From: Escherichia phage PA27
DNA: 64,000 nt
Direction: 5' to 3' (one strand)
Sequence record: KP682380.1
Positions 27,001 to 30,000 of the stretch are shown one piece after another (position 1 is the stretch's first letter; each line of letters begins with the position of its first letter). The position numbers are program-made.

Positions 27001-30000
27001 GAACCTTTGGCGCATTTGATAACGAATGGCATACGCTGGCTTTCCGCTTTGCCGGGAATAACAGCCTGCAGGTGACGCCGGTTATTGATGGTCAGGATGG
27101 CACACCGTTCACGCTGACGCAGTCACCGGTCAGTGCCTTTGCGGCGGATAAACTGCATGTGACAGACATTACCAGAGGTGCGACTTACCCGGTACTGATA
27201 GACAGCATTGCGGTGGAAGTGAACAGCACAGACACTGCGGCATGATAAAAAAACCGCCAGCGACAGGAATGGACGCTGGCGGTGGTGATACCTATGGAGA
27301 AAAAATAAAGGAACGATACTTTCGTACTCTGGTTTTTAATGAAAACAGTTCTTATTGTCAACAATAACGGAAAGAAATTATGACATTTCTGAACCAGTTA
27401 ATGCTGTACTTCTGTACGGTGGTCTGTGTGCTGTATCTCCTTTCGGGTGGGTACAGGGCCATGCGTGACTTCTGGCGCAGACAGATTGACAAAAGGGCCG
27501 CTGAGAAAATCAGCGCCAGTCAGTCAGCCGGAAGCAAACCCGAAGAGCCGCTCATTTAGCGGCAACTTTCTTAATCACACCTTTCGACGAGAAAATCCCA
27601 TGTCAGAAATTACATCCCTGGTCACTGCAGAGGCAGTGAAGGACGTCCTGCGCTCTGAAGAAGTCCGGAGCGCACTGAAACAGAAACTTCGCCATAACCT
27701 GGAAGCGCGTCTTGATGCAGAAGTGGATGCCATTCTGGATGAACTGCTTGGTGTACAGGCAGAGCCACCGACTGAAGCGGGAGATACCACCGCAGAGAGC
27801 GGTGAAGTTCAGCCTGAATCACCGGTCGCCGATGCGACTGAACCTCAACCCGAATCGGTCATGATGCTGTAACGGGGAGTCAGGGCCATCAGTAAACAGC
27901 TGCTGGCCTTTTTCATGTTGTGAGCTTCCGGATTGCGGGAGACGGGGTATGTACCAGATGGAAAAAATCACAACAGGTGTGTCATACACCACGTCAGCGG
28001 TGGGAACGGGCTACTGGTTCCTGCAGTTGCTGGACAGGGTTTCCCCGTCTCAGTGGGCGGCAATAGGCGTGCTGGGGAGTCTGCTGTTTGGGCTGCTGAC
28101 ATATCTGACGAACCTGTATTTCAAGATTAAAGAAGACCGGCGTAAGGCGGCACGGGGAGAGTAAGCTGATGAGCAGGAAACTCCGCTATGGTTTATCGGC
28201 TGCCGTTCTGGCGCTGATTGCCGCAGGTGCTTCTGCGCCTGAAATCCTCGACCAGTTTCTGGATGAAAAGGAAGGTAACCACACCACAGCATACCGTGAT
28301 GGTGCGGGTATCTGGACCATCTGCCGTGGAGCCACCCGGGTGGATGGTAAGCCTGTTATTCCTGGCATGAAGCTGTCGAAGGAAAAATGCGACCGGGTTA
28401 ACGCCATTGAGCGTGATAAGGCGCTGGCATGGGTGGAGAAAAACATCAAAGTGCCGCTGACCGAACCCCAGAAAGCGGGGATCGCGTCATTCTGTCCGTA
28501 CAACATTGGTCCCGGTAAGTGTTTCCCGTCGACGTTTTACAGACGAATTAATGCAGGTGATCGAAAAGGTGCCTGCGAAGCTATTCGCTGGTGGATTAAG
28601 GACGGTGGCAGAGACTGCCGTATTCGTTCAAACAACTGTTACGGTCAGGTATCCCGTCGTGACCAGGAGAGCGCGCTGGCGTGCTGGGGAATCGACAGAT
28701 AAGAAGAATATTTTGCTGAAAAATGAGGTTTGCTTACATGGACGGATAACACGAAATCCTGCAAATTGGCAAAATGTAAGTGAATAAAGTCAAAACAGTT
28801 GTTTAACACTCAGGCACCGTAATGATGCCTTTGTCATTTCTGCGCATCTCACGCGCATCTCACAACACAGAACCTTTCAGGATGACCCTTGAGGATACCG
28901 GTTTGGCTGTCGGTGCCTTTCTGTGGGCTGGATTCCTGTGAGACAAGGTTCATCACTAAAAGGAAATAACCGATGAATATGATGGCCGTGCCGTTTCACG
29001 GCAACTCTCTTTATGTAGTTAACCATAATGGCGAACCATACGTTCCCATGAAACCTGTCGTTGCGGGGATGGGGCTGGCCTGGCAATCACAGTTGGCTAA
29101 GTTAAGACAGCGTTTTGCGTCAACTATAACGGAAATCGTTATGGTTGCTGAGGATGGGAAACAACGCAATATGGTGTCCATGCCACTTCGAAAACTTGCC
29201 GGCTGGCTACAAACCATTAATCCCAACAAAGTAAAACCCGAAATCCGCGATAAGGTCATCCGGTATCAGGAAGAGTGCGACGATGTTCTTTACGAGTACT
29301 GGACGAAGGGTTTTGTCGTTAATCCCCGTAAAATGAGCGTGATGGAAGAACTCAACCAGGCTTGTGCTGACATGAAACGGGATAAAAACATTGCCAGTGT
29401 GTTTGCTACCGGGCTGAATGAGTGGAAACAGGTTAAAGCCGCGCATGTATCAAAAATCCGTACGCTGGTAAATGAAGCGAATATGCTGATTGATTTTGTC
29501 CTGGCTGATACAGGCAAAGGGAAAATAACAAAGGCGGATTGATGGGGTGGCTAATGATATCAGATAAACTCATAACGCTGGTGAAGAGCCTCTGTGTACT
29601 TGTCGGCATTTCATTTTTAGTCATGCTGGTTGCCATTTTCTTTTCCACCGCCTGGCGAGTCCTGACGTTATCGGGACTGGTGGGGTGAAAGAGAGATGAA
29701 CCGTGTTCTGTGTGTGGTGATTATTGTCCTGGCGGTTGGCTATGGTGCGCTGTGGCTGGCAACAAACCATTACCGTGACAACGCGCTCACCTACAAAGCG
29801 CAGCGCGATAAAAAAGCCAGAGAGCTGGAACAGGCGAATGCCACCATTACTGACATGCAGGTGCGCCAGCGTGATGTTGCTGCGCTCGATGCAAAATACT
29901 CGAGGGAGTTAGCCGATGCGAGAGCTGAAAATGAAACTCTGCGTGCTGATGTTGCCGCTGGTCGTAAGCGCCTGCGGATCAACGCCACCTGCTCCGGTAC

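Follow-up and report, generated by a model that had tools for sequence, protein, structure and literature searches.

The Hfq-dependent small RNA (sRNA) Esr41 (RF02676; EcOnc14) is encoded on the island SpLE1 of Escherichia coli O157:H7, and acts through a region that includes the motif UUUUCUCCAU to repress chuA and cirA, each at its ribosome-binding site. Compensatory mutants, in which Esr41-M1 (GGG to CUC directly 3' of UUCUCCAU) was matched with chuA-M1, place this pairing on UUCUCCAUGGG (Waters 2017 Table EV8). In strain E2348/69 of enteropathogenic E. coli (EPEC), the northern-verified, Hfq-dependent sRNAs PasA and PasC are encoded on the minus strand between an esterase gene and a holin gene (PMC8550237 Table S6), and their homologues in strain Sakai are EcOnc51/52, located in Sp12 and Sp4. 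A design in which promoter and terminator are fixed and the RNA body can change has been described both for AsxR/AgvB (Tree et al. 2014) and for PasA/PasC (Zhu, Shabalina and Storz; Zhu et al. 2026), and as regards Esr41, Zhu et al. 2026 noted no more than that cmscan matches to 'Esr41' are frequent near PasD, an STnc100-like sRNA. Here we describe a locus in Escherichia phage PA27 (sequence record KP682380.1), of which a stretch of 64,000 nucleotides (nt), referred to as the window, was analysed. In this locus a hairpin and a small open reading frame (ORF) lie between the lysis genes and the 3' fragment of nanS-p, which encodes a sialate O-acetylesterase. Two independent accessory-cassette genes probably occupy this interval between the Shiga toxin (stx) and lysis genes: a predicted, hitherto unannotated sRNA gene of the Esr41/Pas type, which would produce a leftward RNA of about 79 nt, and the already known ORF ECs_1210, encoding a membrane protein for which no tie to lysis or to toxin-antitoxin systems was seen. 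Positions 27100-27950 of the window (851 bases) match the Stx2 prophage of E. coli O157:H7 Sakai, Sp5, with 100% identity, and for the part of the window around these positions the NC_002695.2 coordinate equals the window coordinate plus 1,244,840. Feature coordinates are collected in Table 1.

The original prediction had assigned the U-tract of the hairpin to the minus strand, and this was borne out by the analysis. The arms CCGCCAGCG (27254-27262) and CGCTGGCGG (27274-27282) form a G+C-rich stem of about 9-10 bp, and the A7 of the plus strand at 27247-27253 reads on the minus strand, and only there, as a U7 directly 3' of the stem. On the plus strand, the stem is followed by UGGUGAUACC with no U-tract, so that the hairpin qualifies as an intrinsic terminator on the minus strand alone. 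The 80-nt minus-strand RNA folded with -22.5 kcal/mol as against -10.3 +/- 2.4 kcal/mol for shuffled sequences (z = -5.1), and none of the 200 shuffles did as well. A simple terminator scan returned only the inner 5-bp version of this structure because its loop limit was set at 8 nt. In E. coli FDAARGOS_1298 (L006:894-1045) the loop is the exact reverse complement of that at 27263-27273 of the window (GCAGGAAUGGA vs UCCAUUCCUGU), while the stems are unchanged; the hairpin has been flipped there, presumably in a recombination or template-switching event inside the inverted repeat.

The hairpin had also been taken to imply some leftward transcription into this region. Leftward transcription is supported by the terminator and by a conserved sigma-70-like promoter sequence, but as a local event and not as entry from downstream; the most likely start of the RNA lies about 75 nt upstream of the hairpin. 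The predicted promoter lies inside the 134-bp spacer between nanS-p and ECs_1210, and its position sets the start at about 27325 and the length of the RNA at about 79 nt. In the predicted fold, the putative seed is part of a longer, U-rich, anti-Shine-Dalgarno stretch, UUUUCUCCAU, which is unpaired. Two ORFs within the spacer, of 41 amino acids (aa) on the plus strand and 59 aa on the minus strand, were rejected as they are absent or frameshifted in other alleles, and the spacer was therefore taken to be non-coding. In some phage records, spurious 'hypothetical protein' ORFs are annotated over the sRNA element.

An Rfam scan at a relaxed threshold yielded a full-length match to Esr41 (positions 1-74 of 74) on the minus strand at 27322..27245, ending at the U-tract, with a covariance score of 28.1 bits (E 0.003, with 601 nt searched). 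For comparison, the SpLE1 locus of Esr41 itself scored 108.6 bits, and as 28.1 bits does not reach the gathering cut-off of 102, the spacer sRNA is best regarded as a paralogue of Esr41 and not as a member of the Rfam family. A reciprocal covariance model, R1, built from 11 alleles of the spacer sRNA, gave Esr41 as its best outside match (27.5 bits, E about 1e-3). The two RNAs are similar in length (74 nt for Esr41), and pairwise alignment revealed in common the -35 hexamer TTGACA, much of the promoter spacer, and UUUUCUCCAU followed by GGUAU; their terminators are also alike, both reading CCGCCrGC...GCUGGCG with a U7 tail. In contrast, the 5' stem-loop of Esr41, GAUGCUCUAGGCAUC, has not been kept, and the spacer sRNA carries instead an unrelated A/U-rich ACGAAAGUAUCGUUCCUUUA, which forms a weak A/U helix in the minimum free energy fold and none in the centroid. 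The genomic sites differ as well, Esr41 adjoining iha in SpLE1 and the spacer sRNA lying in the late region of an Stx phage.

The slot itself is that of PasA and PasC, in that the spacer sRNA lies directly 3' of, and convergent with, a sialate esterase gene and upstream of an S21-type holin gene. The PasC terminator, GCCAGCG...CGCUGGC, begins right after A7 and the esterase stop codon, as it does in the window, and the flank upstream of PasA/PasC is homologous to the window. Otherwise only the terminator aligns: the RNA bodies and seeds of PasA and PasC are unrelated to those of the spacer sRNA, and model R1 gave 16.8 bits for PasC (E 0.2) and 11.9 bits for the esterase-proximal terminator of the PasA locus (E 2.4). 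Unlike the window, the Pas loci of E2348/69 are devoid of DUF1378, the family to which ECs_1210 belongs, and of the DUF826 gene that follows it. The order found in the window, STnc100, esterase and Esr41-like RNA, fits the remark of Zhu et al. 2026 on matches near PasD. The AsxR/AgvB anti-sRNAs offer a more distant parallel, as they too are short, leftward and convergent with an accessory gene of the late operon behind PR', with a conserved 3' terminator and a variable 5' seed. However, they are located 3' of stx2B, differ in sequence and measure 51-60 nt, and a sponge function is not indicated for the spacer sRNA.

Of 5426 complete E. coli genomes, 919 carry a 136-bp element containing the predicted gene (73-100% identity). 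The element is also present in 233 phage records, VT2-Sakai (100%) and VT1-Sakai (96%) among them. Across the 12 aligned variants, the Esr41 locus included, TTGAC is invariant and the sixth base is A in ten and T in two; a -10 of the TAAAAA type stands 17-18 nt from the -35 in all of the phage-slot variants, and a stable hairpin with a run of at least seven U is present in every variant, despite very different RNA bodies. The terminator stems themselves differ in sequence (CCGCCAGCG, GCCGCCGG, UCCCGCC and CGCCGGCA). The motif UUCUCCAU is invariant in Esr41 and in the ten Esr41-like alleles, and is different in two other body types, both with an unrelated middle: one, in 14EC001 and L019, has the stem GCCGCCGG/CCGGCGGC, and the other, in a Mu-like phage, the stem UCCCGCC/GGCGGGA. 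This conservation of promoter, seed and terminator across diverged alleles argues for a function of the predicted RNA. Counted with the Esr41-like type, PasA and PasC, these sRNA-like body types, of which there are at least two in the esterase-DUF1378 spacer (L017:2342-2475; L019:3863-4000; L015:3855-4000), all with TTGAC(A/T), 18 nt, TAAAAA and a U-tailed terminator, bring the variants of this one slot to five.

Several points weigh against an Esr41-like sRNA gene in the spacer. The -10 hexamer lacks the conserved final T, and a promoter scan made no call there. The seven core pairs of the terminator are invariant across the close family, with no compensatory change, and covariation is therefore uninformative on the terminator, for which the differing stems of other subfamilies were used instead. 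The Hfq cross-linking and analysis of cDNA (CRAC) peak list of Tree et al. 2014 contains no peak at the Sp5 site, though the PasA homologues EcOnc51/52 are listed; low expression, or the handling of reads mapping to both the Sp5 and the Sp15 copies, may account for this. Likewise, Tree 2014 Table S2, the supplements of Waters 2017 and Sy 2020 hold no peak at or mention of the Sp5 spacer site, no non-coding RNA (ncRNA) is annotated at the element in any RefSeq genome, and a literature search found no paper describing an sRNA of the esterase-DUF1378 spacer. The likeness to Esr41 also has its gaps. Beside the seed, the Sp5 allele reads AUAGG where Esr41 has AUGGG, and the CCCUCCGCC stretch that Esr41 uses for bfr is changed. 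With respect to the chuA/cirA seed of Esr41, UUUUCUCCAUGGG, the Sp5 allele is identical over UUUUCUCCAU and continues with AGG, not GGG, giving UUCUCCAUAGG, and its predicted chuA duplex comprises 8+2 bp at -13.6 kcal/mol as against -23.2 kcal/mol for Esr41. As a consequence of this weaker duplex, the targets of the Sp5 sRNA may differ from those of Esr41, and on sequence grounds they are expected to overlap only in part. The alleles MDP9-27 and W24 retain AUGGGUAUU.

Some of these observations would also suit a hairpin that is simply a 3'-end structure of the nanS-p mRNA, acting as a stabiliser or as a leaky two-way terminator, with no separate sRNA and with the likeness to Esr41 left over from shared ancestry. 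The stem begins only 9 nt past the esterase stop codon (TGA 27243-27245), and the missing CRAC peak, the uncalled, non-consensus -10 and the lack of a RefSeq ncRNA annotation all agree with such a structure. We nevertheless consider it unlikely. The U-tract is confined to the minus strand, and a terminator on the plus strand would be of little purpose because late transcription is Q-antiterminated. Moreover, TTGAC and TAAAAA stand at a fixed distance in every variant, even where the RNA body is unrelated, the seed is both invariant and single-stranded, and the homologous slot of EPEC yields northern-verified sRNAs.

The spacer sRNA would thus be transcribed leftwards, from 27325 to 27247, from its own sigma-70-type promoter. 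Its layout, with the single-stranded seed UUUUCUCCAU, a strong terminator and a U7 tail, is that of an Hfq-dependent trans-acting sRNA, and predicts binding to Hfq. In a lysogen, transcripts from PR' stop at tR' (Sy 2020; established lambdoid biology), and so the sRNA would be made without opposing transcription in the state in which it is presumably mainly expressed. By analogy with Esr41 on chuA and cirA, it may act as a trans-repressor of the anti-Shine-Dalgarno type, pairing at the ribosome-binding sites of host mRNAs. During lytic growth, Q-modified polymerase would read through the sRNA gene from the other side, and the late transcript would serve for both ECs_1210 and the DUF826 gene.

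Late mRNA that reads through the spacer contains, 54-133 nt upstream of the DUF1378 ORF, the full complement of the sRNA. Given perfect complementarity to the late transcript upstream of DUF1378, DUF826 and S, action in cis could follow, and the sRNA might then act on the Q-antiterminated late transcript, by RNase III cleavage or transcriptional collision, set the amount of message reaching the pinholin and so tune the timing of lysis and the release of Shiga toxin. In the same proposal, the slot would be a modular cassette, with fixed promoter and terminator and an exchangeable seed, from which Esr41, PasA and PasC arose. We regard this combined proposal as quite improbable. In a test of pairing in trans, none of the gene starts covered (DUF1378, DUF826, S, R, Rz, Rz1, ant and nanS-p) bound the sRNA well enough to fall within the lowest 5% of background windows.

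As for the 59-aa ORF, the original prediction of a single transmembrane (TM) helix proved right, and the ORF is a real gene that is already annotated, as ECs_1210 in Sakai and as a 'DUF1378 family protein' in RefSeq. Its product matched Pfam PF07125 with 134 bits against a cut-off of 25 (2e-39), residues 1-59 aligning with profile positions 1-59, and also matched PHROG 494; neither family has an assigned function. The ratio of non-synonymous to synonymous substitution rates (dN/dS) was 0.12-0.25 against alleles at dS 0.19-0.37, replacements were conservative, and variable sites were distributed as 8/4/15 over the three codon positions. All alleles keep this frame open, and the other five frames contain stop codons. 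A chance ORF that is never translated might be suspected from its shortness, its weak Shine-Dalgarno sequence (GGAAAG) and the fact that no proteomic or ribosome-profiling evidence was found for it. This substitution pattern, with only one frame kept open, already contradicts such a view, as do homologues that keep both length and motifs, and we give it next to no credence.

Residues 3-21 make up the hydrophobic segment, with a mean Kyte-Doolittle value of 1.98. Residues 25-45, with seven K/R and a net charge of +4, account for the basic tail of the original prediction, except that this stretch occupies the middle of the protein, the last 14 residues being polar and slightly acidic. The TM segment, an SGGY motif, the basic stretch and an invariant AAEKISAS are conserved, and an AlphaFold2 model consisted of one helix over residues 2-50 (predicted local distance difference test score, 76). 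By the positive-inside rule, we infer a topology with the N-terminus out and the C-terminus in, so that the protein would be a bitopic inner-membrane protein with a TM helix at about residues 3-21 followed by a cytoplasmic basic helix bearing AAEKISAS. The family is narrow, with 123 clusters at 90% identity whose source names are all Escherichia or Shigella. It occurs in 306 phage records, mostly of Stx phages, and the protein is 100% identical in 933W; homologues at about 54-66% identity retain length and motifs. The literature on DUF1378, ECs1210 and Z1467 amounted to a remark placing such ORFs between nanS-p and S and an ECs1211 row in a microarray table. Searches of NCBIfam, PADLOC and the PDB with DUF1378 and DUF826 gave nothing meaningful, the matches being PtuB1 at E 0.002 for the Cedecea homologue described below and triosephosphate isomerase at E 0.9.

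A small single-TM protein encoded directly upstream of a pinholin and a lysozyme of the signal-anchor-release type invites comparison with lysis regulators and toxins, and both had been proposed for this ORF. Its 59 aa and single TM helix fit the size and shape of a type I toxin; the divergent sRNA gene lies 19 nt from its ATG, and the sRNA has full complementarity to read-through late mRNA upstream of the ORF. Small peptide genes with a divergent sRNA are known from tisB/istR and zor/orz, of which this arrangement is reminiscent. The peptide could on this basis be a type I toxin, or an antiholin-like regulator of lysis, under the control of the adjacent antisense RNA. However, the predicted duplex between the sRNA and the start of DUF1378 reached only -8.6 kcal/mol, a value equalled or surpassed by 85% of random windows, and the sRNA does not overlap the ORF, its complementarity being confined to late mRNA upstream of it. 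Nor is the linkage of the two genes obligate, as the sRNA slot occurs without DUF1378 in E2348/69 and DUF1378 occurs without terminator or sRNA in Cedecea. The conserved cytoplasmic part of 35 residues, with its invariant AAEKISAS, is more suggestive of binding to a specific partner than of damage to membranes. Pfam and defence-system models gave no holin or defence match, the Pfam match being to DUF1378 only. With neither gene needing the other and a start duplex no better than background, the type I toxin role was not upheld, and control of the peptide by the sRNA, whether as toxin or as antiholin, appears highly unlikely.

The gene neighbourhoods of DUF1378 also speak against a role in lysis. 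The original prediction was correct in that a lysis cassette follows the ORF, and at 14 of 14 E. coli chromosomal loci inspected the order was esterase, spacer of about 135 bp, DUF1378, DUF826 and class II holin. In contrast, one Stx1 phage record contains an inserted Mu-like phage in which the esterase, the spacer, DUF1378 (53% identical) and DUF826 lead into a gene for a DNA methyltransferase, with no holin. In a Mu-like prophage of Cedecea neteri, a lone DUF1378 homologue (54% identical; 54 aa, L018:1501-1665) lies between a tail-fibre-like gene and a methyltransferase gene, with no esterase, DUF826, holin, upstream terminator or sRNA. This was the only homologue found outside Escherichia and Shigella, and the only locus returned from a genome collection with one genome per species. 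Prophages PP2 and PP5 of EPEC E2348/69 have the esterase and the sRNA, and in PP2 also the holin, and are devoid of both DUF1378 and DUF826. About 20 nt near the PasA and PasC promoters (L001:2600-2700, L002:2420-2520) resemble the DUF1378 start, with ATG changed to GTG and a stop after five codons, and it is suggested that PP2 and PP5 lost DUF1378 and DUF826 by deletion. The cassette of the Mu-like phage without a holin, taken together with S21-type holin loci without DUF1378, therefore leaves no link to lysis, and the proposed role of lysis regulator was dropped. Instead, DUF1378 appears to belong with the esterase cassette, as an accessory gene of the moron type, and not with the lysis machinery. 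From synteny and charge, it may pair with DUF826, which stands beside it in every E. coli and phage locus examined and whose product carries the opposite charge; the Cedecea locus, with DUF1378 and no DUF826, speaks against such a partnership.

If expressed, the spacer sRNA would add to the sRNAs known from phages of the Stx1 and Stx2 kinds, among them those of the 933W type as well as Sp5 and Sp15 of Sakai, with a seed that is nearly that of Esr41, a regulator of haem and siderophore uptake, motility and the locus of enterocyte effacement. About one in six sequenced E. coli would then possess a second, phage-borne copy of the Esr41 input, linked to stx. Esr41, so far held to be specific to SpLE1, would be tied to the PasA/PasC slot behind the phage esterase, and this points to a single sRNA cassette, exchangeable between the late regions of lambdoid phages. 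The spacer sRNA element is missed by genome annotations, and for DUF1378 the result is one of clarification, in that it is a real gene for which there is no basis for a name as lysis regulator or toxin.

Table 1. Annotated and predicted features of the nanS-p to lysis interval, in window coordinates.
Feature	Position	Strand	Basis or remark
nanS-p 3' fragment, sialate O-acetylesterase (ECs_5706)	26976..27245	+	Pfam DUF6645, C-terminal half; Sakai annotation
Intrinsic terminator	27247..27282	-	Stem 27282-27274 / 27262-27254, 11-nt loop, U7 at 27253-27247
Predicted Esr41-like sRNA, about 79 nt	27325..27247	-	5' end inferred, +/- 2 nt; Rfam Esr41 sub-threshold match, alignments
Putative seed UUCUCCAU	27294..27301	-	Single-stranded in predicted fold
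Predicted -10 hexamer TAAAAA	27338-27333	-	17 nt from -35
Predicted -35 hexamer TTGACA	27361-27356	-	19 nt upstream of divergent DUF1378 ATG
DUF1378 gene (ECs_1210), 59-aa single-pass membrane protein	27380..27559	+	ATG 27380, TAG 27557-27559; PF07125, PHROG 494
Small hairpin GCCGCU-CAUUU-AGCGGC across DUF1378 stop codon	27547..27563	+	Terminator scan; weak terminator-like site, 6-bp G+C-rich, U-poor tail
DUF826 gene (ECs_1211), 90-aa acidic protein, net charge -13	27600..27872	+	Pfam PF05696, 2.6e-29
S21-type pinholin (ECs_1212), first gene of lysis cassette	27949..28164	+	Pfam Phage_holin_2_1
Lysozyme	28169-28702	+	Directly after pinholin

The late operon of the window, on the plus strand, carries in order three tRNA genes, stx2A and stx2B, the convergent STnc100 (EcOnc27)/AsxR pair and nanS-p. 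After the spacer and DUF1378 come DUF826, the S21-type pinholin, lysozyme, a P22-Ant-like gene and Rz/Rz1, and then bor on the minus strand. The sRNA pair 3' of stx2B occupies 23582-23841, with STnc100/EcOnc27 on the plus strand (207.7 bits) and AsxR on the minus strand (88.1 bits; 23789-23841), and is a second site in the same late operon with a convergent sRNA behind an accessory gene.

The nanS-p gene is interrupted by the insertion sequence IS629 (IS3 family), on the minus strand at 25663-26972 (orfA 26592-26918, orfB 25705-26595; ALIL frameshift pseudoknot 26521-26637), which cuts it into ORFs of 634 aa (N-terminal) and 89 aa (C-terminal), the same as in Sakai Sp5. A further copy of IS629 lies at 18734-19947, its ALIL pseudoknot at 19550-19666 having an identical score, where the Sakai reference has the intact 723-bp gene ECs_1200. 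The window therefore derives from a strain that is like Sakai and has one IS629 more, and the Sakai offset given above is valid only downstream of this second copy.

The DUF826 frame is open upstream as far as a GTG at 27426 (148 aa; 27426-27872), overlapping DUF1378 out of frame, and gene callers sometimes take such a long form, as in L019, where it has 132 aa (L019:4110-4508). PHROG 8301 (139 positions) spans the C-terminal part of DUF1378 and then DUF826, which points to fused or mis-called versions in phage databases. The small hairpin across the DUF1378 stop codon might act between this gene and DUF826 as an attenuator, or as a site of RNA processing.

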